A DNA stretch of 64,000 nt from Oscillospiraceae bacterium (GTDB lineage Bacteria > Bacillota > Clostridia > Oscillospirales > JAVBQB01), in NCBI GenBank assembly GCA_031549265.1, contig JAVBQB010000003.1:20400-84399 (forward strand). Reading direction: 5' to 3'. How positions within the stretch are numbered: the stretch's first letter is position 1; every line of letters starts with the position of its first letter. A model generated the notes under the pieces. That model was not told where the DNA came from and ran no database searches. It saw nothing but the letters and a program-made list of their open reading frames with translations. Of this stretch, positions 3,313 to 54,744 are shown piece by piece. A program made the position numbers and the translations under genes.

Positions 3313-3375
3313 GAAAATAAATCTTACTAAAAAGGCTGCTCAGATTGAGTTATTTTGAGCTTTGTAAGGTACGTT

Positions 3376-6300: not shown

Positions 6301-6417
6301 GCCAACGTATTCCGCGACGACGTGCAGCGGTGCGTCGACGCGGGCATGAACGATCATCTCGGCAAACCGCTTGACTTTGACCAGGTGCTGGATAAGCTGG
6401 GAAAATACCTGAAATAG
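3376..6417 (+). CDS. hybrid sensor histidine kinase (TM, Cache-like, TM, HAMP, HisKA, HATPase_c, two receiver domains)
   Basis: ATG at 3376 (the ORF opens at TTG 3355). The periplasmic region has Cache-like signatures (WYTVPK, ITDPYPY, FIGIISSDITLDKL). HAMP PILVLANTAKKLGDGDF, H-box FLSNMSHEMRTPLNAIIGM, G-boxes DSGIGI and [12 protein letters not shown]. Internal REC RILVVDGD...YFVDSQ...QKP, then terminal REC LLAEDVEINREI...LMDIQMPKMDG...KPLD. Confidence 0.9.
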   Translation: MFKKHSLKTKMFFMASAVAVLAFVVVIITVTFHSFETQKAEAFLLAREMAEKYMNEIKAELQGARVTSETLSTVFETMKEHELTDRGIMNAILKDALASKEYITAFCIAYEPDALDGKDSFYAGKLPEYDETGRYAPYWNKLNKNISVQPLYDIDTADWYTVPKATKREYITDPYPYMVQGKEVMITSLIFPIIHNDKFIGIISSDITLDKLQQMVAGVNTRGIGEFTEIYSNSGTVIAHPDQRYLTKDFSELVVYDDLTGDPAAASDAAGRILKYLSESKAGGAAVSASDFESLSKLADNLQKFAADPDGTALDITLFTTEAADILLRDNLEGQRTADAVKSAIKNGEAYVSNSREYFTVFMPIKFSESTNAWSAAVSFPIEKVLSNAYSIRDFVIFVSLLATLLLAALLYWVASRVTKPILVLANTAKKLGDGDFCVDVPFSANKDEIGTLASAFKSMAERIDELVCKLKKYTRELEEKNAYLNSLNEQLVISSQQAEQSSRAKSDFLSNMSHEMRTPLNAIIGMTSIGKASDHIEKKDIAFSRIEDASAHLLGVINDVLDMSKIEANKLDLSIDDFDFSKMLRRAVSFISFRIQERHQKFKATIDSDIPRVLRGDEQRLAQVITNLLSNAVKFTPEGGSIWLEARLIAETDTGCTLEFRIRDSGIGISPEQQERLFTSFQQADSSTSRNYGGTGLGLAISKQIVGLMGGNIGVESELGVGAVFYFTVSMKRGGDDRKYQLNPPCGCDAVRILVVDGDAEAVDCFRGISGDLGISCDVASSSGKAVSLLERNIFHDIYFVDSQVEGIGGVELIKIIKSRCPEKSAVIMVAADDWKQISDEARRAGADFFLQKPLFRQDIADCINECLSASGKESSATEMLGDDQVFAGKVALLAEDVEINREIVIAVLEPTEMEIDCAENGEQALRMFSENPARYDIILMDIQMPKMDGLETTRRIRAMDAPNATTIPIIAMTANVFRDDVQRCVDAGMNDHLGKPLDFDQVLDKLGKYLK

Positions 6418-23498: not shown

Positions 23499-23546
23499 TA
23501 AATACACCTCTATGCCCGCGTTTACAACACTGCAGATATACATTGT

Positions 23547-23575
23547 ATTATACATGATCCGCTTTTGCTTTGCAA
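23547..23575 (-). promoter_or_regulatory. sigma-70-like promoter for the 23498 kinase gene
   Basis: On the minus strand: TTGCAA (23575-23570), 17-nt spacer, TATAAT (23552-23547). Confidence 0.55.
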
Positions 23576-26129: not shown

Positions 26130-26204
26130 CGCTGTGCTGCCGCCGCATTGCGCGCTACCCGGTTACAGGCGTACCTCGTTTATTATTATGTTGGGGAGAG
26201 CTAT

Positions 26205-38897: not shown

Positions 38898-39000
38898 GTC
38901 CCGCCGTCTGGCTTTATCCGGAGCGGACCCCGGTTGACAGCGTGATCCATATGTGATAATATCCGCGAAAACCGCCGATAATGAGAGGAGAACCCTTGAG

Positions 39001-39417
39001 TTGACTTACCTTCTGGAGTATCTGGGCGATATTATCCGGCGAATGTTTCACGTGAGCATTCCGCCGGAGTTTCAGCCCAAAATTATCGCCGCCGTTATCC
39101 CGGCACTGGCCGCCATTGTTCTCTGGTCCTTTCTCGGCAAGCGCCGCCGCAGTTTGCTTTACGTCATTCTGATCGGCGCGGGCTTCTGCCTCTTTCTCTG
39201 GATAGCGAAGGACAATCCGCAGAGGTTCAGCGACTTCATAGTCGAGCTGGGCGCGGCGGGCTTCATGTTTCTGCTTTCGCTGCTGTACAATGTCAGCTGG
39301 GCAAAGCGCATTCTCGTGTCGCTGCTGGCTACGGTCGGACTCTACATAGTAACAAAGCTCGCCATCTACGGGATCGACCTCGCGCTCGGCGTCAGGAGTA
39401 CGCTGTCCATTTTCTGA
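39001..39417 (+). CDS. small integral membrane protein (about 4 TM)
   Basis: TTG at 39001 lies 8 nt after GAGAGGAGAA (the ORF opens at 38953). Hydrophobic helices IIAAVIPALAAIVLW, LLYVILIGAGFCLFLW, LGAAGFMFLLSLLY, LVSLLATVGLYIV. Confidence 0.55.
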   Translation: MTYLLEYLGDIIRRMFHVSIPPEFQPKIIAAVIPALAAIVLWSFLGKRRRSLLYVILIGAGFCLFLWIAKDNPQRFSDFIVELGAAGFMFLLSLLYNVSWAKRILVSLLATVGLYIVTKLAIYGIDLALGVRSTLSIF

Positions 39418-39450
39418 GCGGCATTCGCCCGACTGCCGGTGCTAAATAAT

Positions 39451-39487
39451 AACCAGGATGGGGTTTTACGCCTCATCCTGGTTTTTT
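39451..39487. terminator. bidirectional terminator (3' end of the minus-strand signalling operon)
   Basis: AACCAGGATGGGG and CCTCATCCTGGTT form a stem of about 12 bp with a 7-nt loop. TTTTTT follows on plus and TTATTATTT on minus. Confidence 0.7.
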
Positions 39488-39514
39488 GCGGCCATATACG
39501 CGCCGATGCGCCGT

Positions 39515-41044
39515 TTATCTTGCTATCTCGACTCTGTTGCCGCCCTTGGATTTCGCGACAAGCAGCGATTCGCTCGCGAGCTTGATAAGGTCGTCCAGCG
39601 ACTGGCTTTTGGTGCTCATTCTGGCAATGCCGACGCTCACCGAGCATCTGAGCGGGGTGCCCCTGTAATCGTATACGCTGTAGCTGACCTCGTTTTTGAT
39701 CCGTCTCGCGAGGTCCAGCGCGTCTTCCTTCCTGTTGTCGAGCATCATCACGAATTCCTTGCCGCCGAACCTCGCGAGCGGGTATTTCGGGTCGGCGATG
39801 GACTTGATCGAGTCGGCCACCGATTTCATAATGAAGTCTCCGGCTTTGTATCCGAAATTGCTGTTGATCGCCCTCAGCCTGTCGACGTCGACTATTATAA
39901 CGGTCTGCTCGCCGCCGGCTTCGATCGACTCGGCGAACTCGTGCGCCTTGTCGTAGAACGCGTCCCGGCTGTATGTGCCGGTTGCGCGATCGATTGAGGC
40001 GATCGATTGAAGCTCCTCGCTCAGTGCGCGGACTTCAGTCTCGTCGCGGATCAGTATTGACCAGCCCTCGAAGGTGGCGCGCTCTCTTATCCTGCGAATC
40101 GTGCATTTGTAGTATCTGGTCTGGTCGCCGATTGTCACCGGGAAGCTTGTGACCGTCTCTTTCGCGATAAACCGGCGCATGTCGTTCAGCTCGGCGGGCC
40201 AGCCCTTGATCGACTGCAGCTTCTGGAGCGCCTTTTGGTTCATTATCCACGGGAACATTCGGTCAAATGCCCGGTTGCAGCGCAGCATCCTCTGCTCGTC
40301 GTCCACCAGGATCACGGCGTCGGTGACCGCCTCCAGCGCCTGCTCGGTGGTGTGGGACAGGCCCATAAACGGGTTAACGCGCAGCAGGCAGATGAAAAAC
40401 AGAATGATTGACGGAAAGGACGAGAAGATCGGGTAAAACAGATTGCCCGCCTTTAAGCCCCCGTAATAGGCTATAACGCAGCAGAGCGGAATGAACGTCG
40501 CGATCACCATCATTATCACATAGCGGCGGCGGCTCCTGCTCGTTCTGAAGAATCCGATCAGCGTGACCGCGAACGAGGCTAGAAAGCCGGCAATAATGAT
40601 CCCGTAATAAACGTAGGCCCACAGGCCGGGCGTCACCGCGACGGAGCTGACCCCCGTTTCGGCGCTGAACGCTACGTCGGTGTAGAATATCCCCTGCGGG
40701 CCGCTGAGCCACAGGACAATCACCGGCACAACGGGAACCGCGAGCAGTATTGCTCTTGCCGCTCTCGGCAGCTTTAGATCAAAAAACTCGACCACGATCA
40801 GCACCGCCATGACCGAAACGTAAGCTCCGCCGAGCCCCTGAATCTTGAGGCCGACAACGACGCCGTCAAGCGCGGAGGCGGTCAGCTCGATGAGATAACC
40901 GAGCAACAGAACGAAAAGCGAAAGTACAAACGCGATAAAAACGGTAATCTTTTTATTGGCGCAGATGTGGATTGTATAAAACCCGACCGCCAGCATAACG
41001 AGAAGCTCAATGACAGTCAGGGCGATTATCGATTCATTCAGCAT
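39515..41044 (-). CDS. 7TM-PAS-GGDEF protein with degenerate active site (GGKEF)
   Basis: ATG at 41044 overlaps the upstream stop by 11 nt. About seven N-terminal TM helices, then a PAS-like region. GGDEF domain: DRATGTYSRDAF, IIVDVDRLRAINSNFGYKAGD, RFGGKEFVMML, AKSKGGNRV. Lys sits at the third position of the GG(D/E)EF motif, and there is no RxxD I-site. Confidence 0.85.
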   Translation of the reverse strand: MLNESIIALTVIELLVMLAVGFYTIHICANKKITVFIAFVLSLFVLLLGYLIELTASALDGVVVGLKIQGLGGAYVSVMAVLIVVEFFDLKLPRAARAILLAVPVVPVIVLWLSGPQGIFYTDVAFSAETGVSSVAVTPGLWAYVYYGIIIAGFLASFAVTLIGFFRTSRSRRRYVIMMVIATFIPLCCVIAYYGGLKAGNLFYPIFSSFPSIILFFICLLRVNPFMGLSHTTEQALEAVTDAVILVDDEQRMLRCNRAFDRMFPWIMNQKALQKLQSIKGWPAELNDMRRFIAKETVTSFPVTIGDQTRYYKCTIRRIRERATFEGWSILIRDETEVRALSEELQSIASIDRATGTYSRDAFYDKAHEFAESIEAGGEQTVIIVDVDRLRAINSNFGYKAGDFIMKSVADSIKSIADPKYPLARFGGKEFVMMLDNRKEDALDLARRIKNEVSYSVYDYRGTPLRCSVSVGIARMSTKSQSLDDLIKLASESLLVAKSKGGNRVEIAR

Positions 41045-43457
41045 CCGAACTCTCCAAATCAGTTTGAATTACTTTATCAATGGGCAGGTACTTGAGCAGC
41101 AGGTCGTGCAGCCTCGGAATATTGATCGGCTTGGACAGATAATCGGTCATCCCCGCCGAAAAGTAGGTCTCGCTGACGCCGGAGACGACGTTTGCGGTCA
41201 TCGCGATTATCGGAACCGCCGCGAGCGCGCCGCCTATTGCCCGGATCTCGCGCGTGGCGTCCGCTCCGTCCAGCTCGGGCATCATGTAATCCATCAGGAT
41301 CATGTCGTAACTGTTGACTTTCACTTTTTCGATCGCTTCAAACCCGTCGGCAACTGATGTTACGGATATTCCGTACTGCCTGAGCAGCCCTTCCCCCACC
41401 AGCAGGTTGACGGGATTGTCGTCCACAAGCAGCACCGAGACGTCACGGGTCTTGAACGCGCCCGGCTTGACGTTGCGCCTGTTTTTATGCTCGAGCATAT
41501 CCCTGTGGTCGGATTCTATGAACAGCGACGCCAGCTCCATCAGCATGACCGGTTTGTTCAGCACGCCGTGCGCCGCCCGCAGGCTCACCGACCGCTCGTG
41601 TATCCCCTTCATGAAAATAAACCGCGTACGGTCCGCGCGGACGTCGTTTACTATGTCTATCGAGTCGTAGCCGAAGAAAACGTGGGTATACCCGCCCACC
41701 TCAATTTTCGCCTTAAAACTGCCGGGAGTCGCGCAGATATCGCTGGTGATACACAGCTTGTCAAACATCCAGCGCAGCGAGTCGGCCTCAAACCTGTTCG
41801 GGACGCAGCAGAGCGCGCTGAACTCCGCGCTGTTCAGCCTCCGCCAGGCCGAGTCCGGCTCGGAGCCTTCGCATATGATGTAGAACTGGAATTCGGAGCC
41901 CCTGCCGTATTCGCTGGTGGCGGTTATCTCGCCGCCCATCAGCTCGACCAGCCTCCGGCATATAGCGAGGCCGAGGCCGGTTCCGACTATGTTGCGGTTC
42001 ATGCGGGTATTGATCTGCTCAAACACGCCGAACATTTTGCCGATGTCTCCGTTTTTGATGCCGATTCCGGTGTCTTTGACCGTGAAATTGATCCGCCAGA
42101 AGTCGTTGGCCAGCCTGTCCGCGGATATGTGTAGCGAGACCTCGCCCTCTCTAGTGAACTTGACCGCGTTGTTAAGCAGGTTGAGCAGAATCTGCTTCAG
42201 CCGCACCTCGTCGGTGTTCAGCGTCAGTGGCACTCCGGGCGATACGTATGTAGTAAACGCCAGGTTCTGGGCGGCGGCCTTTATGCTGATGATGTTCGCC
42301 GCCGCGATAATGACCGAGGAGAATACGAAGCGCTCGTTTATGATCTGCATCCTGTTGGCGTCGATTTTGGAAAAGTCCAGTATGTCGTCTATGATCTGGA
42401 GCAGTGATCCCGCAGCGTTTTTGATCGAGAGCGTATAGGTCGTCTGCTCGTCGTCGAGGTCGGTCAGAAACATGAGCTCGGTCATGCCGAAGATCGCGTT
42501 CATCGGGGTTCTGATCTCGTGGCTCATGTTGGCGAGAAAGTCGCTCTTGGCCCGCGCCGCAACCTCGGCCTCGTTCTTGGCCTCGATAATGGGCGTAATG
42601 TCCACCCATTCGAAAAACCTCTCGATCCGGCTCTCCCCCATCAGTGAGGAGCGCAGCAGTATCCACTCCGGGCGGCCGTCCACAGTCAGCGCGTACTCGC
42701 GCTCGACATAGCCGGAACTGTGCAGCGTTTCGTGCAGAAGGTCGACCATCTCAGCGCTTTTGAAAAGGTCGAGGAACGGCCGGCCTTTTACCATCCGCCT
42801 GTCCATGATATCCAGGTGGGCGGCGAGCGACGCGCTGATGTATCGGATTTTGGCCTGGGCGTCTACTATGGCCATGAAGCTCGGGGTGGTGTCCATGATT
42901 ATCTCGAACGTTTTGCCGTGGATTTCTGATTTTTTCAACCTGCGGCCACTGACAGATATAATCGCGTACAGAATTATGTTGATTATATTAAAAATACAGA
43001 TCCGTACAAGATGGTCGGCGACCGAAAACTCCGCGCCCAGCAGCGAATACCCGAAAAAAAGAATCGGAGTCACGAATACGAGATTCGCGAGTGCACAGTG
43101 GATAACAAATCCGGTAGTGTTGAAATATATTGCGTTGATCGCCGAAGCCACGATGAGCGAGGCAAAGAATATCTGGTCTCCCCCGAGCAAGACGGCAGAC
43201 ACCGTCGCGCACAGCACTATGGAAAAAGAGCAAATCAGCGACGTCACCGTGGTGGAAACATACCTGCTGAACAGCGACAACTGAATGGCGATTATCGACA
43301 CGACACCAAAGGCCAGACGTATCGACCAGCTATTGCTGCCGAGCCTGTAAAAGTCGAACAGCAGCCCGACAACGACAAGCAGCGTCACCATTCCCGCGGC
43401 AAAAACGCGCACGAATGTATTTATCCGTTTTTCCTGAGTTTTTGTTGTCGAATTCAT
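41034..43457 (-). CDS. hybrid sensor histidine kinase (multi-TM, PAS, HisKA, HATPase_c, degenerate REC-like spacer, receiver)
   Basis: ATG at 43457 after AGGAAAG (the ORF opens at 43532). H-box [20 protein letters not shown]-box LLNLLNNAVKFT, G-boxes DTGIGI and [11 protein letters not shown]. Terminal REC VLLVDDNPVN...LMDYMMPELDG...IAMTANV...SKPI. Confidence 0.9.
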   Translation of the reverse strand: MNSTTKTQEKRINTFVRVFAAGMVTLLVVVGLLFDFYRLGSNSWSIRLAFGVVSIIAIQLSLFSRYVSTTVTSLICSFSIVLCATVSAVLLGGDQIFFASLIVASAINAIYFNTTGFVIHCALANLVFVTPILFFGYSLLGAEFSVADHLVRICIFNIINIILYAIISVSGRRLKKSEIHGKTFEIIMDTTPSFMAIVDAQAKIRYISASLAAHLDIMDRRMVKGRPFLDLFKSAEMVDLLHETLHSSGYVEREYALTVDGRPEWILLRSSLMGESRIERFFEWVDITPIIEAKNEAEVAARAKSDFLANMSHEIRTPMNAIFGMTELMFLTDLDDEQTTYTLSIKNAAGSLLQIIDDILDFSKIDANRMQIINERFVFSSVIIAAANIISIKAAAQNLAFTTYVSPGVPLTLNTDEVRLKQILLNLLNNAVKFTREGEVSLHISADRLANDFWRINFTVKDTGIGIKNGDIGKMFGVFEQINTRMNRNIVGTGLGLAICRRLVELMGGEITATSEYGRGSEFQFYIICEGSEPDSAWRRLNSAEFSALCCVPNRFEADSLRWMFDKLCITSDICATPGSFKAKIEVGGYTHVFFGYDSIDIVNDVRADRTRFIFMKGIHERSVSLRAAHGVLNKPVMLMELASLFIESDHRDMLEHKNRRNVKPGAFKTRDVSVLLVDDNPVNLLVGEGLLRQYGISVTSVADGFEAIEKVKVNSYDMILMDYMMPELDGADATREIRAIGGALAAVPIIAMTANVVSGVSETYFSAGMTDYLSKPINIPRLHDLLLKYLPIDKVIQTDLESSDAE

Positions 43458-43547
43458 AGGCCGCTTTCCTTTGATGCTGTGTTTGAAAATTATAGATACC
43501 ACGGCGGTGTTTGGGCTATACGCAGCTTCCACACCGGAAACATTATT

Positions 43548-44507
43548 TTATCGTCTGACCGCTCCGGCAAAAATTCCGCCGGGTGCCGGGATAAGGCCGG
43601 CCGGGCAGACGAAATTCACGGCACCGGGCACAATTTCGCAGGACAGCTTCCGGTCAAAATAAACTTCGCCGTCAAGCGAATAACAGAACGGAGACTTCGA
43701 CGTGATATCGATCTTTCTTGCCTGAATGTGGTTAACTTTGTCGGAGACGCTGTCGTAACTCCCCCGCGTGTAATGGTACGCCACCGGAATTACCTTGTAC
43801 CGGTTCCTCAGCGCGATCATGTAAATCTCCAGCCGGCCGTCGTCGGGGCGCGCCTCGACAGCGGGAACCATCTTTCGCCCGTATGTCGCGATATTCGCTA
43901 TATTCATTGAAAAGTACCTGCCGGAATAGTTCTCGCCGTCAATTACAACGTTCATCGCCTCCTGCGGAAACCCGCCGGACAGCGCGCAGTGGATGCCCGC
44001 CACCTTGAAGCCGATATCAGATGCGATGCCCGTCTTTTCACTGATCTTGTCGCCGTGATATTTGGCCGAGGCCTCCGCCCCGATAAGGCAGTTGGCGATC
44101 CCGTATTTATTGCCGCAGCTGAACGCGTCCAGATAAATCGTGTCCGCCATAACGAGATTGCGCAGCGAGGAAAACAGATGCACGTTTTTCTCGCCGAAGC
44201 AGTTGATGAACGAATTCAGCCTGCCGCGCGGATAATAGGCGATCTGGACGTTGGGCATGTGCATACATCCGTTTACAACCTCGTTCAGCGTTCCGGAGCC
44301 GCCCACCGCGTAAACGCGCACAATGTCCCGCGCATCTGCCATATATTTGCGGATGTAGCTGACGGCGTCTCTGGAAAACTTGGTGACGTAAATATCGAAC
44401 TGCATGTCGGAGTACAGTTTGAACAGCCCGTGAATCGAGGTGACGATCTCTTCGATATTGCCCTTGACCAGCTCGGCCACGGGATTGATAATAAACAAAT
44501 GTTTCAT
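43548..44507 (-). CDS. diacylglycerol/lipid kinase family protein (YegS/BmrU-like) with divergent catalytic motifs
   Basis: ATG after GGGGTGAG, 12 nt after the upstream stop. MKHLFIINPVA..., AVGGSGTLNEVVNG (GGSGT instead of GGDGT), YYPRGRLNSF (instead of P-x-GTGNDF), and C-terminal SLDGEVY. Confidence 0.75.
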   Translation of the reverse strand: MKHLFIINPVAELVKGNIEEIVTSIHGLFKLYSDMQFDIYVTKFSRDAVSYIRKYMADARDIVRVYAVGGSGTLNEVVNGCMHMPNVQIAYYPRGRLNSFINCFGEKNVHLFSSLRNLVMADTIYLDAFSCGNKYGIANCLIGAEASAKYHGDKISEKTGIASDIGFKVAGIHCALSGGFPQEAMNVVIDGENYSGRYFSMNIANIATYGRKMVPAVEARPDDGRLEIYMIALRNRYKVIPVAYHYTRGSYDSVSDKVNHIQARKIDITSKSPFCYSLDGEVYFDRKLSCEIVPGAVNFVCPAGLIPAPGGIFAGAVRR

Positions 44508-44519
44508 TGACTCACCCCG

Positions 44520-47057
44520 TCAGAGCCGGTTGATTTCGTCTTGCAGCCCGCGCCGCAGAGCCTCGATCCGGTCGAGCGCGGTTTCGCAGTCAAACGCCGA
44601 CAAGCTGTCCGTAACCGCGTCAACAGCCGCGTCGAGCTTTTCCCCGAACCGGACGCCCGAAAACCTGCCCATCAGCTCGATCGCCGCCTCCGGGTCGAAA
44701 TCCGCCGTGACCCGCGCGAGTTCGGGCAGCGCCTCCAGCAGCCCGGTCAGACGCGCCCGCGACATATTCTTCGCCTCCAGCACCACAGCGAGCCGCTTTT
44801 GCAGCCACAGCGCCTTTTCCCGGAAGTCCGGATACGTCTCCCGGCAAAACTGCATATTGCCAGACTTCGAGCTGTGCTCCAGCTCCTCGGCGGAGGCGGC
44901 GAGCGTTCTGCTGCCGAGTGTCTTCAGCGTGCTTTTCAGACTGTGAACCTCGACGGTAAACGGCTTGGCGTCGTCCGTGTTTTCGATATACCTGTCCAGC
45001 TTTTCGACCGAGGTTGCGATGAACCGGGGCGCGGCCGAGATCAACCCTTCCAGAACCTCGGCGAATCCGCCGGAATTCTTGAACGCTTTTTCGAGGTCAA
45101 TTTCCCCGATATCCTCAATCGCGCCGGCAAAGACCGGATCAAGTCCGTGGCGGCGGGCGGGAGCTTCGGCTTGCCGCGCGTCACAGGGCTCACCGACGCT
45201 TTCTGGCGGTTCGCCGCCTGCCGACACGGGGTTTTCCGAGCGCGCGCTGCCGGTAAATGGCGGCGTTACCGCGAAGGGGCTGGCGGGCAATTCGCCGTGG
45301 ACGCCGCTTGCCTTACCGCTAGCTTTTATATTTATGACCCCCGTTTCCATATTCGAGCCGATATTTGCGTTGAAATTCTTGGATGACAGCCAGAGCGAGA
45401 GCGTTTTCGCTATGTGGACCAGAATGTACTCCTCGCGGGCTGCGATAAAGCCCTCGTCGCCGGAGCTTTCGAGGACTATGAACCCCTTGAGCCTCGGCTC
45501 AAAATGGAGCGGAAGGAAATAGCCGGTCTGCGTTTGCTCCATCAGAAAGTCGATTCCCCTTTCGGTGACCAGGTAGCGGTTCAGGCACAGAATTTCCTTC
45601 CCTGACAGCATGGCCTCGATCTCCGCTCCGGACTGTATAAACTGCCGCGCAAGGCTGCCCGGCTCACGGAATCCGTAGTTTTTTTCATAGCAGGAGATCA
45701 GCTCCGCGCTTCCGTCGGTGAAATGGGCGATCGACGTGCGCAGTAAGTTGAACCGCTTGGTAAACATGATTGCGATGCTGTTGAACGCGTCCTCCACGCT
45801 GTTTGCGTCCTGCAGCAGCAGCGCCATTTCCGACTGGATGGCGAACTGCACCTGAAGGCTCTTCTGTGCCATATTGCTCACCCTAAGCTGCTCGACAATC
45901 CTGTGCAGCGACCTGGACAGCACACCAATTGTCTTATCATTTTTGACCGAGACCTCGAAATTGGCGTTCAGGTTGCCGCTCGCTATCTCGTCAGCGGTGT
46001 TTATAAGTACATCGATGGGGTGCAGCAGCCTTCTCGTGACAAAATACGCAAAGAGCGAGGTCAGGGCGATAACAGCCGCAAAGACGACGATCAGCGTAAC
46101 GACGATAGGCCGCACACCCGCGTATGCGGCATCAATTTGCAGCGCGATGAACACGATAATTCCCGACTGGCTGGGCATGTAATACCCGTAACTTCTGCCG
46201 GGCAGCATGTCTGACTTCAGATTGCTGAGAAAGAGCGGCCTCATTTCCGAAAACGCGCGGTTGATTTCATCCAGATTAGTAAAATTCATACTGTGCAGGC
46301 AGGCGTCGATGAATTCCGGGCTGGTGGCCGACAGAATCCGGCAGTCCGGCGAAAACAGGGCGGCAACCGCGTCTCCCAGCCCCTCCACATCGAGAGTCAT
46401 TTCATCCAGGCGCACATCGGCGCCGGCGCATCCGATTATTCGTCCGTCCCTCGTGACCGGAGCGACGATTGTCAGCGAATAGCGGTAGTCGGCGGAGTCG
46501 CGCGTGCTGCCGATCCTCACCCTCGGCGCTATGATATCGAAGTATATCTTGCCGGTTTCTTTCGCGCTGTTGTAATACGGGTAGAGCATCCGGTTGTCGA
46601 TCTCGTCCTCCAAAATGTCCGCCTCGACCGCGATCTTGCCGCCGAGGTCGACATATGACCTGATAAACCTGCCGGACGGCGCGCCGGGATAATCCTCCCC
46701 GTGCCTTTCATCCCTGCCATCGAACGCGCCGGGATCAAAGGCCAGCCAGACCTTGTGTATATCGTCGTTTTCGAACATCGAGCGTATCGCCTTGTCGCAC
46801 CTGCCGCGCGCGAAAGCGTCGTCCGGGTCCACGCTCTCGATCGCGAAGACGGTGGAAAGCAGCGTCAGCTTAACGCCCTTAACGATCCCGTCATACTTTT
46901 GCGCATACGTCTGCGCGACGCTTTGCAGCTTCTGCCTGGTCTCGTTTTCGACGTTTTTATGCACTGTGTCCAGCAGATAAAAGAACACCACAAACGTGAT
47001 CGCGAAAATAGGCAGCAGTATCGCTAAATGAAACTTCCGCGCGATCAAACTTTTCAT
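44520..47057 (-). CDS. transmembrane sensor-Hpt protein: TM, dCache-like, TM, HAMP, GAF-like, Pro-rich linker, Hpt; no kinase core
   Basis: ATG after GGAGGT. Cache-like VTRDGRIIGCAGADVRLDEM. HAMP LLHPIDVLINTADEIASGNLNANF. GAF-like GYFLPLHFEPRLKGFIVLESS. Hpt motif VEVHSLKSTLKTLGSRTLAASAEELE, with His705 encoded at 44943-44945. I see no H-box, N-box or G-box anywhere in the 845 aa. Confidence 0.85.
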   Translation of the reverse strand: MKSLIARKFHLAILLPIFAITFVVFFYLLDTVHKNVENETRQKLQSVAQTYAQKYDGIVKGVKLTLLSTVFAIESVDPDDAFARGRCDKAIRSMFENDDIHKVWLAFDPGAFDGRDERHGEDYPGAPSGRFIRSYVDLGGKIAVEADILEDEIDNRMLYPYYNSAKETGKIYFDIIAPRVRIGSTRDSADYRYSLTIVAPVTRDGRIIGCAGADVRLDEMTLDVEGLGDAVAALFSPDCRILSATSPEFIDACLHSMNFTNLDEINRAFSEMRPLFLSNLKSDMLPGRSYGYYMPSQSGIIVFIALQIDAAYAGVRPIVVTLIVVFAAVIALTSLFAYFVTRRLLHPIDVLINTADEIASGNLNANFEVSVKNDKTIGVLSRSLHRIVEQLRVSNMAQKSLQVQFAIQSEMALLLQDANSVEDAFNSIAIMFTKRFNLLRTSIAHFTDGSAELISCYEKNYGFREPGSLARQFIQSGAEIEAMLSGKEILCLNRYLVTERGIDFLMEQTQTGYFLPLHFEPRLKGFIVLESSGDEGFIAAREEYILVHIAKTLSLWLSSKNFNANIGSNMETGVINIKASGKASGVHGELPASPFAVTPPFTGSARSENPVSAGGEPPESVGEPCDARQAEAPARRHGLDPVFAGAIEDIGEIDLEKAFKNSGGFAEVLEGLISAAPRFIATSVEKLDRYIENTDDAKPFTVEVHSLKSTLKTLGSRTLAASAEELEHSSKSGNMQFCRETYPDFREKALWLQKRLAVVLEAKNMSRARLTGLLEALPELARVTADFDPEAAIELMGRFSGVRFGEKLDAAVDAVTDSLSAFDCETALDRIEALRRGLQDEINRL

Positions 47058-47130
47058 TTGACCTCCACTCGTTGCGCCTCAACCGGTTGTTTGGGGCACT
47101 CTGAAAAAAATGCCCCTTATCAGCGCGCAC

Positions 47131-50100
47131 TCATTCGCCCGCCCGCTTTGCCAAGCCTCCGGCTCTGTCATAATCGAATTCAGACATCGCCTCTTGTATC
47201 TCCAGCAGGAGTCCGTTCTTTTTTGCGCCGAAATCATATCCGGCGAGCCCGCTGATTATCTCCTCGGCTTTGTCAATAGAGTAGTTCTCCAGCTCCGAGG
47301 TCAGATCAGCCAGCGCCGATTTGAAAAACTCCGGATCACCCTGTTTTTTCTCGCGGCGTTCACCGGCTCCCGGCGCACTCACGGCAAAAACGCTGAGCTG
47401 GCTGCCCAGCTCTGTAAGCCGCTCTAGGAACACCGGCAGCCTCGCGATGGCCTCATCCAGCCGGTCAGCCTTGGATGTCTCCTCGATCTCGCGCGCCGCC
47501 GCGGCCAGGGCCACTGCCCCGAGGTTATCCAGCGCGCCCTTTATGCCGTGGATTTCGGTGATAAAGTTCTTTTTATCACGGGCTTCGGCAGCGTCGCTGA
47601 GCCTCTGGATGACCGACGGGATTATCTTGGCCAGCATTTTCAGCGACTCGCAGTAAATGTCTGTCTGGTTTTCTATGCGGCGCAGGCCGAGCTCCGCGTC
47701 CAGCTCCGGAATTATTGACAGCCTGTCCAGCAGCGATTCGAATTCCGGGTCGGCGGGCTCGGCAAGTGACTGGCCGCCCGCTTTGACCGAGGTAATCTTT
47801 TCAGGCGGCAGCCATTTCTGAAGTATCCTGACAAGCTCCCTTTTGTCGATGGGCTTTTTGAGGAAGTCGTTCATTCCGGCTTCGAGCAGCATCATTTTCG
47901 CTTCCTCGAAAGCGTTTGCGGTCAGCGCGACAATTACGGTGTCCTCCTTCGCGTAGCCCCGCTCGCGCAGTATCTTCACGGCCTCGGCGCCGTCCATCTT
48001 CGGCATCATGTGATCCATAAACACGATGTCGTAATGCTTGGCCTCGATCATGCTGATGGCCTCGGCGCCGCTGCTCGCCGTCTCGCACTCGATGTCACAC
48101 AGGCGGAGCAGGCCGGACGATACGTTCAGGTTGATTTCGTTGTCGTCCACAACCAGGATATTGGCGTCCGGCGCCGAGACAAACGCGAAGTCGTCGTCCG
48201 CCAGGGAGAAAATGGATTCGTCGCCGGGCATATACGGCGCGGATACGTGAAAAGCGGAGCCCTTGCCGTATTCGCTCTCCACCCACAGGCTGCCGCCCAT
48301 GCATTTGATGATGTTGCGGCTGATCGCGAGGCCGAGCCCTGTGCCCTGAATATTCTTGTTGGCGTGCTGGTCGAGCTGTTGAAACGCGTCGAACAGCTTG
48401 CCGATGTCCTCTTCCTTGATTCCTATGCCGGTGTCGTAAACGTCGAACAGCAGCAGGCCATTGTGTTCGGACACCTCCATTACGACATGGCCCTCAGAGG
48501 TGAACTTCACGGCGTTGCTGAGCAGGTTGACCAGTACCTGGCGCAGGCGGGTCTCGTCGCCGTAAATGCAGGTCGGCAGCTCGGTTTTTTCGATCAGCTT
48601 GAACTCGACGTTCTTCTGGTTGACCGAATACTCGATGAATGAGCGGAGATTGTCCAGCAGGTCGCGCAGTCTGAAGTCGGAGCACACCAGCTCAAACTTG
48701 CCGGACTCGATTTTCGATATGTCGAGTATGTCGTTGATCAGCGTCAGCAGCGACTCTGCCGAGACCTTTATGTCGTAGGCGTACCGGCGCTGCCGCGTCG
48801 TCAGGTTCTCGACCAGCAGCAGCTCGGACATGCCGATTATGGCGTTCATGGGCGTCCGTATCTCGTGGGACATGTTGGCGAGGAACAGCGACTTCGCCTT
48901 GGCGGCGTGCTCGGCGCGCACTGTCATCTGCATCAGCTCGGCCGTCCGCTCGTCGACGCACCGCGACAGGTTTTTCTCCAGCTGGTCGCGCTCGAGGCCC
49001 AGCTGCCGCCTGTTGAGCAGGTTGGACAGCATGCCGCCGATATTGCCGAAAAGCTCCTCGTCGGTATGGGTAAAGCGCCGTCCGCCGTCGAGATCGATCA
49101 TCGCGAGGTATCCGCAGTAGCTGTCAAACTCGGTCAGCGGAACGAGGCATGCTTTTGCCGTTTCGGCGTTCAGCTCCAGCTCCGCGATCTGAGCCGGGCT
49201 CAGCTCGAGAATCCTGGTGTGGCTTGTCTCGATCGCCGAGGTCAGCCGGTCGACCAGGCGCGTATGCTTCATCGGCAGGAATTCGCGGGTCGCGGCCTTT
49301 TGCCAGAAGGCGACCAGCGACGGCTGTTCGTGCGAAATATGCACGATAAATACGATCGAAAACCCGAGCAGCTGGCCGGTGCTCTCCGCCGCCGCCTGAA
49401 ACGCGTCGTCCAGGTCGAGCTTGCTCTGAATTGTGCTGAGCACGCTGTTATAAACCATCAGCTCGCTGGAAATCTGGCGCTCAATCTCAAGAGAATCATT
49501 GAGCTGCACCACCATTCGCTTGATCGCGCCTGCGAGCATCCCGATCTCGCCCTGCTTTTCGGAAGCAAAATCGAACTCGCCGATATCCACGCCGCCCTCG
49601 GTCGCGATCCTGTCCGCCGCCTCGGCAATCCGCTTTACCGGGTCGGTTATCCTCCGCGCCGTGATGAAATTCGCGATTATCAGCGTCAGGCATCCGAAAA
49701 TGAAGATGAGAACAGTTATCATCGCGAGGTTCAGCCCCGGAGAGTAGAGCACCATGTCGTCCAGAATATTGCAGAACGACCAGTATGTGTTCAGAGCCGG
49801 GATTTTTACCGGATAGAGGCTGACAATAAAGGTATTGGTTTTGGTTTTGTAGTTGCCGACCTGGAACAGCCGCTCGTGGTTTTCAACAGCCTTTACAACC
49901 CCGGCAGGGCTTACAAATCCGATATCGCTTACTTTCTTGTCATAAAACTGGGCGTCGTTGGCAAAGGCGACGTAGCCGTCCTCCTGGAACAGAATATATT
50001 TCCCGCCGATCGTGTTAAGGGTGCTTATCATTTCACATTGGGTGGAAAAAGAAATGTCAACGCCAACGCAGCCGATGATTTTCCCGTCGCGGGTAATCGG

Positions 50101-50685
50101 GGCGGCGATGGAGTTAACATACTTTTTTGCGCGGCTGTCTTTATAGTCGTGGAATTCCGGGCGCAGGACCGCCATCTTGCCGGTCGTCAGCGGCAGGTAG
50201 TACCACTTGGTATCCGGCTTGTCGAGCTTGCTTTCGTCGACGTCATAGACCTCGGCCGGCTGCCCGTCCTTCATAATATACGATTTGTTGAACCTGCCGG
50301 ACATGCTGTTGCGCTGAATTCCGGCAAAATCGGCATCGCGCCCGTCGAACGCGTCCGGCTCGAAAGCGATCCACACGTTGTACGAATGGTCGACCGAGCG
50401 CAGCATACCGCTGACGATGTCCTCTACCTTCGCGCGGGAGGAAGCTTCGTCGTGCGGGTATGCGGAGATGATCTCGGAGACCTGATTCAGTGTATTGCAG
50501 GCGTTTGAGAGCACGCCGCTGAAATGCTCCGCCACTTTTTCGGCGGAGTATTCGAGCTGCCTGCGAACCGAGTCTCCGGCGAACGTGACTACCATATAAC
50601 AGAGGGAGGCCAGCATAATAATGAAAAAAATCACAGTCGGAACCAGCGTTCCCAGAAATACTTTGCTGAGAATTGTATTTTTCAT
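47131..50685 (-). CDS. unorthodox hybrid sensor kinase: TM, dCache-like, TM, HAMP, GAF, HisKA, HATPase_c, receiver, Hpt
   Basis: ATG at 50685 after GTGAGGA (the ORF opens at TTG 50706). Cache-like [42 protein letters not shown]-box [20 protein letters not shown]-boxes DTGIGI and [25 protein letters not shown]...[11 protein letters not shown]...KKPID. Hpt [27 protein letters not shown]. Confidence 0.9.
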
Positions 50686-50762
50686 ATCATCCTCACCACA
50701 GGTCAAGCCCCGACCGCCGACGGCGGAAAGTCAGCCGCTTGAGTCTCCGGCCGGCAAAGGTA

Positions 50763-51902
50763 TCAATAGAATCCTTTGGCCAGCATTTCAAATTGCTTTT
50801 CGACTGTCAGAAAAACCTCCACAAGACTCGGGTCAAACGAGTATCCCGAGTCCTTTTCGATCAGCTTAACCGACATTTCGTGGCTGATCTCGCCCTTATA
50901 CGGCCGGTGTGACCGGAGCGCGTCGTACACGTCGGCTATGGCGAGCACCCGCGCCATAAACGGGATGTCCTCGCCGGCAAGCCCGTCAGGATAGCCCTCG
51001 CCCGACCATTTCTCGTGGTGGCTGCGCGCCATTGTCAGCGCGTGCTTCAGGAAGATATTGTCATGCGCGAAGCGGATTGCCTCCGATATGGAATCCGCGC
51101 CGAACAGCGTGTGCGCCGGCATCGCCTCAAGTTCCTGCGGCGACAGCATGGACTTGATTATCGAATCGGCTCCCTGGTTTGTGTGGGTCTTTATGCTGTC
51201 AAATTCGTCCGAGGTCAGCTTGCCGGGTTTGAGCAGGATGTGGTCGGGGATCGCAATTTTTCCGACGTCGTGCAGCTTGGACGACAAGACGATGGCGGGA
51301 ATGTCCTCGACTTCGATCCCCTCCGCCTTGTTCGCGTTAAACAGCGCGTCCAGCAATATTTCAACGTACTGCGAGACTCTGATTGTGTGCCCTCCGGTAT
51401 AGCCGTCCCGCTTCTGGATAAGGTCCGAAACCGTATGTATGATGGCGAACTGGAGCTGGAGTATGTTCTGCGTCTTTTCGTCGACCAGCGATTGCAGATT
51501 GTTCGCGTACCCCGCGAGCTCTTTTTTCTGGCTCAGCATGGTCAGATGGATTTCCACCCGCTTTTTGAGCAGCTCGGGATGGATTGGCTTCACGATGTAG
51601 TCGACCGCGCCGATTGACAGGCCGTCGACCTCAGTCTCCACCTCGTTTGCCGCCGTGAGGAAAATGATGGGTATTTCGGCCAGGTTGCCGTCGCTTTTCA
51701 GAGTTTTCGCGAGCTGGAACCCGTCCACATCCGGCATATTGACGTCAAGCAGAATGAGGTCGGGAAGCTCGCTGAGCTTGCCCAGCACTTTCAGCGCCAT
51801 CGCTCCCGAAGGCACCGGAACCACGGTATACGATTTTTCCAGCACCTTTTTTGCGAGAGTAAGATTAATTACGTTATCATCAACGATCATTATCCTGCTC
51901 AT
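50763..51902 (-). CDS. response regulator with HD-GYP c-di-GMP phosphodiesterase domain (RpfG-like)
   Basis: ATG after GAGGTG. REC IMIVDDNVINL...LLDVNMPDVDG...VKPI. HD-GYP motifs GGHTIRVSQY, HDVGKIAIPD, HHEKWSGEGYPDGL. Confidence 0.9.
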   Translation of the reverse strand: MSRIMIVDDNVINLTLAKKVLEKSYTVVPVPSGAMALKVLGKLSELPDLILLDVNMPDVDGFQLAKTLKSDGNLAEIPIIFLTAANEVETEVDGLSIGAVDYIVKPIHPELLKKRVEIHLTMLSQKKELAGYANNLQSLVDEKTQNILQLQFAIIHTVSDLIQKRDGYTGGHTIRVSQYVEILLDALFNANKAEGIEVEDIPAIVLSSKLHDVGKIAIPDHILLKPGKLTSDEFDSIKTHTNQGADSIIKSMLSPQELEAMPAHTLFGADSISEAIRFAHDNIFLKHALTMARSHHEKWSGEGYPDGLAGEDIPFMARVLAIADVYDALRSHRPYKGEISHEMSVKLIEKDSGYSFDPSLVEVFLTVEKQFEMLAKGFY

Positions 51903-52092
51903 GCGGAAAACACCTCTGGTTTCGTCTTTTATTATGTTATGGGTAGCAATATATACAGCAATAGTATATTAGCATACAAGAATTTAAAAATCCATCATTT
52001 TTCACACGAATTTCATCAGAATACGACATAATATTGAGCCGCTTTCGAACCATTCGATTATTGTGTACTATTTTCGTAGATGTTGCTCAATC

Positions 52093-52121
52093 TTGATTAT
52101 TTTGACTTGTTCATTTATAAT
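52093..52121 (+). promoter_or_regulatory. candidate promoter for the surface-protein genes
   Basis: TTGATT (52093-52098), 17-nt spacer, TATAAT (52116-52121), 138 nt upstream of the ATG at 52259. Confidence 0.5.
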
Positions 52122-52258
52122 ATATAAGACTTTTCAATTTGATCCGGACGCACTGTCCCGAATACGGGTTCGCGTCATCAGCTTTTTGTCAGCACGGCAG
52201 CGTTTTTTGCGCGAATCTGCGCCACCGTGCCCGATTATATTTACTTTTGGAGCTTGAA

Positions 52259-53032
52259 ATGAAAAAATTCTTTAGCGTATTGCCTGTGCTTCTTTGTTTT
52301 ATCTTGCTTGCGGGCTGCTTCGGCCCTCCGTCCGACCCGCCTCCTACCAAACCACCGGCGCTTGACGAGGTTTCTGCATCGCCTGACGCCGAAGCCCCGG
52401 CCTCCCCGGACGCCGATGTCTCCTCCGCCTCTCCCGCAGATGAGGAAAAACCCTCTCCGGAGGACGCGAGCCCGTCCCCCGCGGATACCGGCAACGCTCC
52501 GTCAACAGCAGACACCGGCGACAAAACAGGCGCAGATACCGGGGATACTCCGACCGTGTCCGACCCGCCTCCGGAAAGTTCCGCTCCGAACGAATCCGCC
52601 CCTCCCGCGGACTCTCCCTCGCCCGCTCCGACTCATTACACGTTTACCGTGCCGGACGGATGGGTATCCGCCAATATCGAAAACGGAAAATCGCTGACGA
52701 ATCCCTCGATTCCGGGCGCTGAAATCAGGATTACCAGATACGGGGGCGAGGGTGATCAATTCAACTCCAGCAACTTCAAAAACTGCCTCAGCAGGCATCC
52801 CGAAATATCCGACAAAAGGGTCGCTGGGTTTTTCACCTATAGAATGGACGGCGTGGCGTTCAACAGCTTTAATTTCACCGGCGACATCCAGGGCCGCGAG
52901 ATCGGCGGCAGTTCCTTTTGGATTAGGCTGGGCGACGATCTTCTGATCTGCGACGGAATTGCGCCGGTCAAAAACCAGGATTTGGTCGGCGACGCCGTCT
53001 CCGCCATTCTGTATTCCAGCAAGTTCCAATGA
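52259..53032 (+). CDS. lipoprotein with Pro/Ser/Asp/Ala-rich low-complexity linker
   Basis: ATG at 52259. Lipobox FILLAGCFG. About 110 aa of P/S/A/D-rich sequence, then a globular C-terminal domain with no recognised family. Confidence 0.7.
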   Translation: MKKFFSVLPVLLCFILLAGCFGPPSDPPPTKPPALDEVSASPDAEAPASPDADVSSASPADEEKPSPEDASPSPADTGNAPSTADTGDKTGADTGDTPTVSDPPPESSAPNESAPPADSPSPAPTHYTFTVPDGWVSANIENGKSLTNPSIPGAEIRITRYGGEGDQFNSSNFKNCLSRHPEISDKRVAGFFTYRMDGVAFNSFNFTGDIQGREIGGSSFWIRLGDDLLICDGIAPVKNQDLVGDAVSAILYSSKFQ

Positions 53033-53076: not shown

Positions 53077-54744
53077 ATGAAAAAGCTATCGTCCTTTGTT
53101 CTGGCCTTCGCGATGCTGGCGGCGCTCTTGCCGACGGGCACCAGAGCGCTCGCCGCCGATACCGTCTGGCAGTCCTCCAAGAGCGTGTCCTTCCCCGGAG
53201 GCAGCAGAACGGTCACCGCCGTGTACATAAACACTAGCGACAAGACGCTGATGGTCGACGCCGTGTTCGCCGGCGGCCAGATCGGCAGCACCGCCAGCCT
53301 CAGCGCGATGGCCGAGACAAAGAACACCGGCGGCCGCCAGGTTGTCGCCGCCATAAACGGCACTTTTTTCGACGCCTATGTTAAAAGCGGGCCCAAGCTG
53401 CCCTTTGGCACCATTGAGTCCGGCGGCAGGCTGGTCTACGCCAACGACGCTCCGACCTTCGCCTTCAGCTCGGCAGCAGGGCCGATGATCTCTTACGCCT
53501 GCCCCAAGATCACCGGCAGAGTCTACAACACCGGCAACGACGGCCAGAAAACGCTGGAATGGAAGAACGAAACGGTCAACAGCCTCTACAGTAAGGATCA
53601 GGGACACGCGGTTTTCACGACGGCATACGGCAAGACCACCGGCCCGCACAACATGACCTCGTATGTGGTCAGAAACGGCGTTATAACCGAGAAAATACAG
53701 GGCGAGGCTCCGATATACGCGGACGGTTACACCATCGTAACCAACTACGCGTGGAACATCAGCGACATCTACAAGGTCGGCTGCAGGATAGATATGGAGA
53801 TCAAAAGCTACGACCGCGGCGGCAATCCGCTCGGCGACGACTGGGACAGCGCCGAAACCATGCTGGGCGTCGGCCCGACGCTGGTGCGCGGCGGGAATAT
53901 TATCGCCGACCCGGCCGCCGAGGGCTTTTCCGAGGGCAAAATCGCGACTGGAGCCGGACAGCGCAGCTTCATCGGGTATACAAAGGACAAAATTCTCGTT
54001 ATGGGCACGGTTCCGAACGTTACGATCAAACAGCTGGCGCAGGTCGCCCAGAGTATGGGACTGACCGACGCTATGAACCTCGACGGCGGCGCTTCATCCG
54101 GCCTTTACTACAACGGCAAGTACGTGACCAGCCCGGGCAGGGATCTCAGCAACTGCCTGGTCGTCACAAGGGGCGCGGCACCGGCTCCTCCTCCCGACAA
54201 CGGCGCGGTTCCGTCCTCCTGGGCAAAAGCTGAGATCGACGCCGCCATTGCCCGCGGACTTGTCCCCGCCGAGCTTCAGTCCCGCTATAGGGACAATATT
54301 ACGCGGCTGGACTTTTGCCACTTGCTCGGACAGGCTATCGAGGTGAAAACCAGCCGTTCGCTGCGGGAGCTTTCGGACTCATACGCTTCCCCGCAGGCTC
54401 CGCTCACTTTCTCCGACACGATGGACGAAAGCGTCGGTTATCTCAGCCGGATGGCGATTGTATCGGGCTATCCCGATGGGCGTTTTGGTCCTAGCGACCA
54501 AATTGAGCGCCAGCAAGCCGCGAAGATACTGGCCGTCACCGCCGCCGCCGTCAATGGATCTTCAACCAGCGGTTTTGCGCCCGCTTTCGCGGATAACTCG
54601 AATATCGCGGCCTGGGCGCTGCCGTTCGTCGGCTACGTCTCAAGCTCCGGCATCATGAAGGGCCTGGACGGCAACCGCTTCGACCCGACCGGCAAATACA
54701 CCCGCGAGCAGTCGGTCATTACCGTGCTGAGGCTGCTCGGCTGA
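53077..54744 (+). CDS. phosphodiester glycosidase (NAGPA/DUF2233) family protein with C-terminal SLH repeats
   Basis: Signal peptide MKKLSSFVLAFAMLAALLPTGTRALA. NAGPA-type core ending in AMNLDGGASSGLYYNGKY. SLH repeats FSDTMDESVGYLSRMAIVSGYPDGRFGP and FADNSNIAAWALPFVGYVSSSGIMKGLDGNRFDP. Confidence 0.8.
   Translation: MKKLSSFVLAFAMLAALLPTGTRALAADTVWQSSKSVSFPGGSRTVTAVYINTSDKTLMVDAVFAGGQIGSTASLSAMAETKNTGGRQVVAAINGTFFDAYVKSGPKLPFGTIESGGRLVYANDAPTFAFSSAAGPMISYACPKITGRVYNTGNDGQKTLEWKNETVNSLYSKDQGHAVFTTAYGKTTGPHNMTSYVVRNGVITEKIQGEAPIYADGYTIVTNYAWNISDIYKVGCRIDMEIKSYDRGGNPLGDDWDSAETMLGVGPTLVRGGNIIADPAAEGFSEGKIATGAGQRSFIGYTKDKILVMGTVPNVTIKQLAQVAQSMGLTDAMNLDGGASSGLYYNGKYVTSPGRDLSNCLVVTRGAAPAPPPDNGAVPSSWAKAEIDAAIARGLVPAELQSRYRDNITRLDFCHLLGQAIEVKTSRSLRELSDSYASPQAPLTFSDTMDESVGYLSRMAIVSGYPDGRFGPSDQIERQQAAKILAVTAAAVNGSSTSGFAPAFADNSNIAAWALPFVGYVSSSGIMKGLDGNRFDPTGKYTREQSVITVLRLLG

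Follow-up and report, generated by a model that had tools for sequence, protein, structure and literature searches.

Can a membrane receptor without a kinase core be the place where a signal enters a phosphorelay? The question is raised by an open reading frame at 44520-47057 on the minus strand of a 64,000-nucleotide stretch of Oscillospiraceae DNA (contig JAVBQB010000003.1 of assembly GCA_031549265.1), hereafter called the window. The frame is uninterrupted from its ATG start and encodes a product of 845 amino acids, in which a complete sensory front end is followed by an Hpt domain. We refer to it as the sensor-Hpt protein. Judged from sequence comparison, it represents a real, conserved family of kinase-less membrane proteins that end in an Hpt domain. 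With a probability of roughly 0.6, we consider it the membrane-embedded H2 (histidine phosphotransfer subunit) of a phosphorelay that is conserved and made up of several proteins; it is probably the extracytoplasmic sensing subunit of that relay as well.

Domain layout of the sensor-Hpt protein

The following features were assigned to the gene and its product.

44520-47057, minus strand: sensor-Hpt protein, 845 amino acids (first transmembrane segment, TM1; dCache; second transmembrane segment, TM2; HAMP; GAF-like domain; linker; Hpt; helical tail), from Pfam, AlphaFold2 (AF2) and a Pfam scan of the family
44763-45137, minus strand: Hpt four-helix bundle, residues 641-765, from AF2, Foldseek and profile matches
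44943-44945, minus strand: His705, predicted phospho-acceptor (VEVHSLKSTLKTLG), invariant in 23 members and aligning with the histidine of 3myf and 7c1i
44523-44762, minus strand: conserved C-terminal helical tail, residues 766-845, ~80 amino acids
45150-45353, minus strand: disordered Pro-rich linker, residues 569-636, from AF2 and family lengths
45354-45797, minus strand: GAF-like alpha/beta domain, residues 421-568, from AF2 secondary structure and weak profile matches
45882-46043, minus strand: HAMP domain, residues 339-392, with a Pfam score of 27 bits, above the cut-off of 25
46038-46112, minus strand: TM2, residues ~316-340, from AF2 and hydrophobicity
46122-46955, minus strand: extracytoplasmic dCache domain, residues ~35-312, from Foldseek, Pfam dCache_1/PDC_1 and invariant columns
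46968-47030, minus strand: TM1, residues ~10-30, from hydrophobicity and AF2
47061-47066, minus strand: GGAGGT ribosome-binding site, 3 nucleotides 5' of the sensor-Hpt ATG

This is the order that had been described in the initial annotation (TM, Cache-like domain, TM, HAMP, GAF, Pro-rich linker, Hpt). The GAF domain is the weakest call. Profile searches gave a HAMP match above its cut-off. dCache_1 and Hpt scored below theirs but were backed by Foldseek, and the Pfam GAF models gave no match in the protein itself. Its two hydrophobic segments lie at residues ~4-30 and ~308-340.

The full-length AF2 model had a mean predicted local distance difference test (pLDDT) value of 72.8. It consists of an N-terminal transmembrane and stalk helix, an alpha/beta region (83-312), TM2 with HAMP (316-417), a second alpha/beta region (421-568), disorder (561-636) and an all-helical region (641-844). 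In a Foldseek search with this model, the top 50 hits were all dCache matches, so the C-terminus was modelled separately.

Hpt domain: On structural modelling, the C-terminal region is a bona fide Hpt fold with predicted phosphotransfer. The separate model of residues 637-845 reached a pLDDT of 91, and Foldseek placed its first four helices on 3myf with template-modelling scores of 0.85-0.87 and a root-mean-square deviation of 1.9-2.0 Å. Plant AHPs, BarA, HptB, ShpA and Ypd1 were other matches. The top Protein Data Bank (PDB) sequence matches of the family profile over the C-terminus are Hpt domains with the His aligned (3myf, 7c1i), and Pfam detects Hpt at E<0.01 in 16 of the 23 family members, the best value being 4.5e-7. 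His705 was found at the position first proposed for it and is one of only 13 invariant columns in the alignment of these 23 proteins, which share 19-29% identity with the query. G706, K708 and G715 are conserved in at least 90% of them, and the Hpt motif H-x-x-K-[GS]-x(5)-G is kept despite the low overall identity. The four-helix fold and the invariant, aligned His thus bear out the assignment as a genuine Hpt domain.

Helical tail: Past the Hpt part, Foldseek returned no convincing structural match for residues 766-845. The Hpt-plus-tail unit also ends the neighbouring kinase at 47131-50706 and many hybrid kinases, among them many dCache-HAMP ones of ~1000 amino acids, and it occurs as stand-alone proteins of 200-300 amino acids.

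Linker: AF2 gives a pLDDT below 50 across residues 561-636. Over the family, the distance between GAF and Hpt varies from 22 to 90 amino acids and the sequence is poorly conserved. The protein of the window has the longest linker.

dCache domain: With 24 bits, the match to Pfam dCache_1 stays under the cut-off of 45, and PDC_1 is matched in 15 of the 23 members. Foldseek with the AF2 model gave target-normalised template-modelling scores of 0.74-0.79 to dCache ligand-binding domains, among them M. mazei HK1S-Z2/Z3, TlpQ, PctD and TlpC. The model shows the double PDC on a long N-terminal stalk helix, between the two transmembrane segments. The strongest conservation of the whole family lies in this extracytoplasmic domain, in a motif at residues 108-135 (46653-46736, minus strand) that reads EPxAFDGRD...YPGAPSGRFIRSY and in full EPxAFDGRD...YPGAPSGR(F/Y)xRSY. 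AF2 confidence is low at residues 116-128, inside the motif. The neighbouring kinase and the sensor domains of Methanosarcinales kinases have the same motif.

HAMP domain: HAMP follows TM2 directly and is kept in all 23 members.

GAF-like domain: Pfam matches GAF or GAF_2 in 3-4 of the 23 members. The top matches of the family profile in the PDB over this region are all GAF domains, at weak E-values of 0.003-0.03, and the predicted alpha/beta topology is compatible with them. We therefore call residues 421-568 GAF-like, tentatively.

Upstream of the gene, a hairpin (GGGGCA, 12 nucleotides, TGCCCC) at 47093-47116 on the minus strand lies just past the stop codon of the preceding kinase and 36 nucleotides before the sensor-Hpt ATG. 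It is not followed by a T-run and was not flagged by the terminator scan. Promoter and terminator scanning of 39000-52600 gave only near-background intragenic sites, which leaves the transcription units undefined. Downstream, a gap of 12 nucleotides separates the sensor-Hpt stop codon from the ATG of the next gene (start 44507).

Absence of a kinase core

At E<=0.1, Pfam found neither HisKA nor HATPase_c nor Response_reg in the sensor-Hpt protein, and it detected no HisKA, HATPase_c or REC (receiver) domain in any of the 23 family members. The NCBIfam search matched only the HAMP region, to unrelated kinase models, and provided no family name. With hhalign, the family profile was compared with one built from five kinase cores of the same window, which gave a probability of 0.2%. 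These profile searches uphold the initial annotation in that the protein carries neither a kinase core nor a receiver. A cryptic core, which we considered as an alternative, is ruled out by the same three methods.

The gene directly upstream is a natural reference for this absence.

47131-50706, minus strand: paralogous full hybrid kinase, 1191 amino acids, dCache-HAMP-GAF-HisKA-HATPase-REC-Hpt, here an addition to the cassette described below

Both ends of the sensor-Hpt protein are homologous to this kinase, residues 1-459 with 26% identity (E=3e-34) and residues 617-827 with 26% identity (E=1e-8). The whole HisKA-HATPase-REC block of ~375 amino acids is missing, and the disordered linker stands in its place. 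The sensor-Hpt protein is no closer to this neighbour than to family members from other phyla. A distance (neighbour-joining) tree places its sensor region closer to other sensor-Hpt proteins than to the neighbouring kinase. The deep nodes of the tree have less than 50% support, at which it does not decide between a kinase that lost its core and a sensor that gained an Hpt domain.

Family distribution and variants

A word-indexed search detected 7-9 relatives of 775-810 amino acids, some of which are already called HAMP/HPt proteins in the JGI and NCBI annotation. When 1.84 billion cluster representatives were then searched exhaustively with a profile, 562 proteins came up at E<=1e-30. The best 150 of these 562 were classed with probes built from the window's own proteins. 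They comprise ~43 proteins with sensor and Hpt without a kinase core, 21 with GAF and Hpt, and 44 hybrid kinases of ~1000 amino acids with the order dCache-HAMP-core-Hpt. When one genome per GTDB species was scanned, 222 relatives were found, and the full sensor-Hpt protein (775-852 amino acids) is encoded at ~32 distinct loci. The carriers are Treponema and other Spirochaetota, Eubacteriales and Defluviitaleaceae, Synergistaceae, and Zoogloeaceae and other Betaproteobacteria.

Since this architecture is found again and again at these ~32 loci, in at least four phyla and with the invariant His, the sensor-Hpt protein is not a broken kinase. The view that it is expressed as such and is not a truncated pseudogene is hence well founded.

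Two kinds of variants accompany the family. Hpt-less dCache-HAMP-GAF paralogues of 552-602 amino acids, which end right after GAF, are encoded in the same operon at 7 betaproteobacterial loci (L029, L031, L033, L036-L039), between the sensor-Hpt gene and a gene for a DAGK-like (diacylglycerol kinase-like) protein. At another locus (L030, 4675-6408) the Hpt-less form is the sole sensor beside the DAGK-like gene and the kinase. Hence, the dCache-HAMP-GAF module has an output that is independent of Hpt. The second kind are dCache-less forms of ~500 amino acids (P0029, P0035, P0036, P0039, P0045, P0050, P0053, P0060), in which the same N-terminal motif and two transmembrane segments joined by a very short loop are followed by HAMP-GAF-Hpt; in effect, dCache has been cleanly removed. 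Taken together, the two kinds of variants mean that the sensor and Hpt modules can act separately.

The conserved cassette

Apart from the kinase at 47131-50706, the genes around the sensor-Hpt gene are the following.

50763-51902, minus strand: response regulator of the type REC-HD-GYP, with intact HD and GYP motifs (predicted D2 and output)
43548-44507, minus strand: DAGK/YegS-like protein, GGDGT changed to GGSGT, constant cassette partner
41034-43532, minus strand: hybrid kinase with ~6 transmembrane segments, PAS-HisKA-HATPase-REC, without Hpt (predicted H1 and D1), likely start Met26 at 43457
39515-41044, minus strand: 7TM-PAS-GGDEF diguanylate cyclase, its start overlapping the kinase stop by 11 nucleotides, specific to this operon

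Comparison of the ~32 distinct loci revealed a constant core, in which the sensor-Hpt gene is followed by the DAGK/YegS-like gene and then by a gene for a hybrid kinase of 790-830 amino acids (HisKA-HATPase-REC). The genes abut or overlap by 4 nucleotides. At ~30 loci the cassette includes the gene for the Hpt-less hybrid kinase, and at most loci a gene for a response regulator adjoins. In most spirochaete and betaproteobacterial loci this is a REC-HD-GYP protein directly upstream of sensor-Hpt. In Eubacteriales and Defluviitaleaceae it is instead a protein with a 200-amino-acid N-terminus of no known type and a C-terminal REC (X-REC), encoded after sensor-Hpt. No cassette kinase at the loci compared carries an Hpt domain. 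In the window, the minus-strand order of REC-HD-GYP, sensor-Hpt, DAGK-like protein and hybrid kinase matches the cassette, with 47131-50706 inserted after the regulator. The 1191-amino-acid neighbour is therefore extra here rather than the customary partner, a part that conservation assigns to the Hpt-less hybrid kinase 41034-43532.

Hybrid kinase: In the cassette kinases, a hydrophobic, polytopic N-terminus of ~170 amino acids precedes PAS and leaves no space for a periplasmic domain. The best match of 41034-43532 is from a Eubacteriales metagenome-assembled genome (MAG; L008).

DAGK-like protein: The Asp of GGDGT is catalytically important in the DAGK/YegS superfamily. DgkB and other solved members read GGDGT where the protein at 43548-44507 reads GGSGT. 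In none of the 32 distinct cassette orthologues is this position a D; it is S, N, T, G, V or M instead, and the flanks of the replaced Asp are strongly conserved. The protein may accordingly act as an accessory of the relay, be it as a conserved pseudoenzyme or as an altered kinase.

Diguanylate cyclase: The operon of the window is bracketed by a cyclic di-GMP (c-di-GMP) phosphodiesterase (REC-HD-GYP, 50763-51902) and a cyclase (39515-41044). At other loci the cassette does not include the GGDEF cyclase, although L005 has a GAF-GGDEF gene nearby.

Nearly all genomes with the cassette (L008-L043) are uncultured MAGs, and their isolate names, which are the only source for this, suggest an arthropod-gut metagenome series. 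The four phyla and the arthropod-gut-like MAG names point to horizontal spread of the cassette within one habitat.

At least six Hpt-less hybrid kinases are encoded in the window, at 72-1040 (+), 1218-2705 (-), 3355-6417 (+), 19596-23555 (-), 23751-25304 (+) and 41034-43532 (-). A profile search of the whole 64 kb found only two Hpt domains, those of the sensor-Hpt protein and of 47131-50706. The window has a GC content of 54.9% and also encodes SLH-domain proteins and methyl-accepting chemotaxis proteins, two of each (33254-35689 (-), 53077-54744 (+), 26148-28343 (+), 28561-30717 (-)). Along with the Eubacteriales match of the cassette kinase, this suggests a motile bacterium with an S-layer, possibly from the Bacillota.

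Proposed phosphorelay

The cassette holds exactly one each of H1, D1, H2 and D2, and its only extracytoplasmic domain is on the H2 protein. As the sensor-Hpt protein has no HisKA-HATPase-REC block, H1 and D1 must come from another protein. With this stoichiometry and the linkage of the genes, the sensor-Hpt protein is the obvious candidate for H2 between the hybrid kinase and REC-HD-GYP.

We infer phosphate flow, the site of signal entry and the formation of a physical complex as follows. The hybrid kinase 41034-43532 would autophosphorylate (H1) and transfer the phosphoryl group to the receiver on the same polypeptide (D1). It would then pass from D1 to His705 of the sensor-Hpt protein (H2), and from His705 to the receiver of REC-HD-GYP 50763-51902 (D2), where it would set c-di-GMP hydrolysis. 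The dCache-HAMP-GAF module would bind an extracytoplasmic ligand and most likely act in trans, either on the partner kinase or on the way in which the complex assembles. The Hpt domain would be held on its flexible tether beside the receiver of the partner kinase, and the degenerate lipid-kinase-like protein would be a third constant subunit. The logic would resemble that of RcsD, with a signal that enters the relay via a kinase-less Hpt protein.

Several points weigh against this assignment. The Pfam match to Hpt (PF01627, residues 686-740) scores 20.5 bits, below the gathering cut-off of 24.6. The predicted template-modelling score of the full-length AF2 model is 0.39, a value at which inter-domain geometry, including any docking of GAF and Hpt, is unreliable. 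Operon linkage by itself is no proof of a phosphotransfer partnership, and at two loci (L014, L028) no response regulator adjoins the cassette. The window moreover adds a full kinase with its own Hpt and at least five other Hpt-less hybrid kinases. With so many of the latter, His705 could serve other donors.

Possible sites and modes of signal action

Ligand-gated phosphotransfer: The initial annotation had proposed that the transfer step itself could be gated. A ligand of dCache would shift HAMP and GAF and thereby expose or hide His705, so that the checkpoint is H2 and autophosphorylation is unaffected. The presence of the whole dCache-HAMP-GAF input in one polypeptide with Hpt at ~32 distinct loci agrees with this, as does the conservation of Hpt-proximal residues, and GAF might dock onto Hpt intramolecularly. 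The difficulty is the linker, whose variable length and poor conservation provide no continuous helix for HAMP signals. Because it is disordered and 22-90 amino acids long, such a tether is unable to carry HAMP-to-DHp helical rearrangements. In addition, the Hpt-less paralogues show the sensor module with another output, and Hpt occurs without dCache in the short forms. The proposal was thus overstated, since the tether is a poor conduit for HAMP-type signals; we regard gating of His705 as unlikely, and as less likely than a co-sensor that acts in trans. The disordered linker together with the Hpt-less and dCache-less forms favours the latter, in which H2 is tethered. The sensor-Hpt protein is hence, by analogy, most likely an RcsD-like membrane co-sensor for the partner kinase that carries a tethered H2.

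Three-protein complex: A combination of these elements seems doubtful to us as well. The sensor-Hpt protein, the pseudo-lipid-kinase and the polytopic kinase would form one membrane complex, in which the dCache ligand controls access of Hpt to the kinase receiver, for example by docking of GAF on Hpt, and the pseudo-lipid-kinase adds an input from membrane lipids. If this is true, the regulated step would be H2 access and not autophosphorylation, and the three proteins would be a sensory device for c-di-GMP control without a characterised counterpart.

Passive anchor: It is quite improbable that the N-terminal sensor receives no signal and only anchors an Hpt domain, which would be a shuttle shared by the genome's many Hpt-less kinases. 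Two Hpt domains stand against at least six Hpt-less hybrid kinases in the 64-kb window, as such a hub would explain, and the short dCache-less forms fit it too. Of a mere anchor, however, neither the location of the strongest family conservation in the extracytoplasmic motif 108-135 nor a HAMP domain in 23 of 23 members would be expected.

Phosphate sink: Still less probable is a negative regulator, in which Hpt drains REC-HD-GYP or other receivers back to the receiver or phosphatase of a hybrid kinase and keeps the pathway off until a signal arrives. Many hybrid kinases of the window bear receivers, and transfer through Hpt is reversible in known relays, with RcsC and RcsD as the phosphatase route for RcsB (PMC5651002). 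The single copy of each relay element, however, fits forward flow equally, and none of our observations is specific to reverse flow.

Decayed gene: That the sensor-Hpt gene is a recent, functionless copy of the adjacent 1191-amino-acid kinase, truncated by in-frame deletion of HisKA-HATPase-REC, has next to nothing in its favour beyond the homology of both ends, and it is refuted by conservation and distances, namely an identity to the neighbour no higher than to members in other phyla, a sensor that the tree places nearer to other sensor-Hpt proteins, the recurrence of architecture and His at the other loci, and an intact frame with a ribosome-binding site.

Comparison with known systems

RcsD: The initial annotation knew of no characterised example of an Hpt domain under a membrane sensor. 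RcsD (YojN) is such a precedent. It has no kinase activity, receives phosphate from the receiver of RcsC and passes it on to a response regulator; as genetic work showed, the Rcs signal enters through periplasmic and cytoplasmic (PAS-like) contacts of RcsD with IgaA (PMC5651002, PMC7418988). RcsC can do without its periplasmic domain (PMC7418988), and RcsD is thought to descend from a duplicated kinase ancestor (PMC5651002, PMC7418988).

The sensor-Hpt protein shares with RcsD the two-pass topology, a periplasmic domain, the C-terminal Hpt and the lack of an autokinase, and its predicted partners are likewise an Hpt-less hybrid kinase and a response regulator. The differences are as follows. 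RcsD keeps a truncated PAS, an inactive HATPase and an ABL domain, whereas the sensor-Hpt protein has HAMP and a GAF-like domain without a trace of a kinase core. The input is a dCache ligand-binding fold instead of an IgaA-binding domain, the output a REC-HD-GYP enzyme instead of a DNA-binding regulator, and the accessory a DAGK-like third protein instead of IgaA and RcsF. RcsD is found in Enterobacterales, the sensor-Hpt protein in Spirochaetota, Bacillota, Synergistota and Betaproteobacteria. The NCBIfam model of RcsD gave no sequence match to the sensor-Hpt protein. From these comparisons, RcsD is the closest functional analogue, but the sensor-Hpt protein is not a member of the RcsD family.

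Unorthodox hybrid kinases: Via the neighbour 47131-50706, the sensor-Hpt protein shares both ends with kinases of the ArcB, BarA and TorS type, but it is without the kinase core that defines them.

Soluble Hpt shuttles: LuxU, HptB, ShpA, Ypd1 and the plant AHPs have the same four-helix bundle and conserved His, and the best structural matches for residues 641-765 are of this kind. They are cytoplasmic proteins of ~110-150 amino acids without an input domain. The sensor-Hpt protein is six times larger, and its Hpt is the C-terminal quarter of an 845-amino-acid two-pass membrane receptor, extended by the 80-residue helical tail.

PhyT: Another protein to be considered is PhyT, which is bound to the membrane. 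It is described as a bifunctional phosphotransferase of the alphaproteobacterial general stress response that is derived from a kinase and relays without autophosphorylating (PMC5898713). PhyT uses a DHp-type histidine, on a kinase dimerisation domain without ATPase, and not an Hpt bundle. It is not known to have a dCache, HAMP or GAF input and is unrelated in sequence to the sensor-Hpt protein.

Within the literature collection searched for bacterial membrane or sensor Hpt proteins besides RcsD, and for the cassette, neither the architecture nor the cassette is described from bacteria; only papers on plant transmembrane HPt proteins and general reviews came up.

Significance

The regulation of phosphorelays is generally placed at the kinase. 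To our knowledge, RcsD, which occurs in Enterobacterales only, is the one well-studied case in which a signal enters via a kinase-less membrane Hpt protein. By analogy, the sensor-Hpt protein most likely represents an uncharacterised variation on the part played by E. coli RcsD, as the middle step of a four-step relay that controls c-di-GMP breakdown. In this family, the RcsD logic would have evolved or been retained independently, with a dCache input and no remnant of a pseudo-kinase.

For annotation, such genes are better named membrane phosphotransfer proteins than "HAMP domain-containing protein" or truncated kinases. The conserved and probably non-catalytic lipid-kinase homologue is a candidate for an unrecognised accessory of two-component systems. 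The cassette is compact, has apparently spread horizontally and has a c-di-GMP phosphodiesterase as its end point. The system would be a simpler one for asking whether control of a relay can act at the H2 step.

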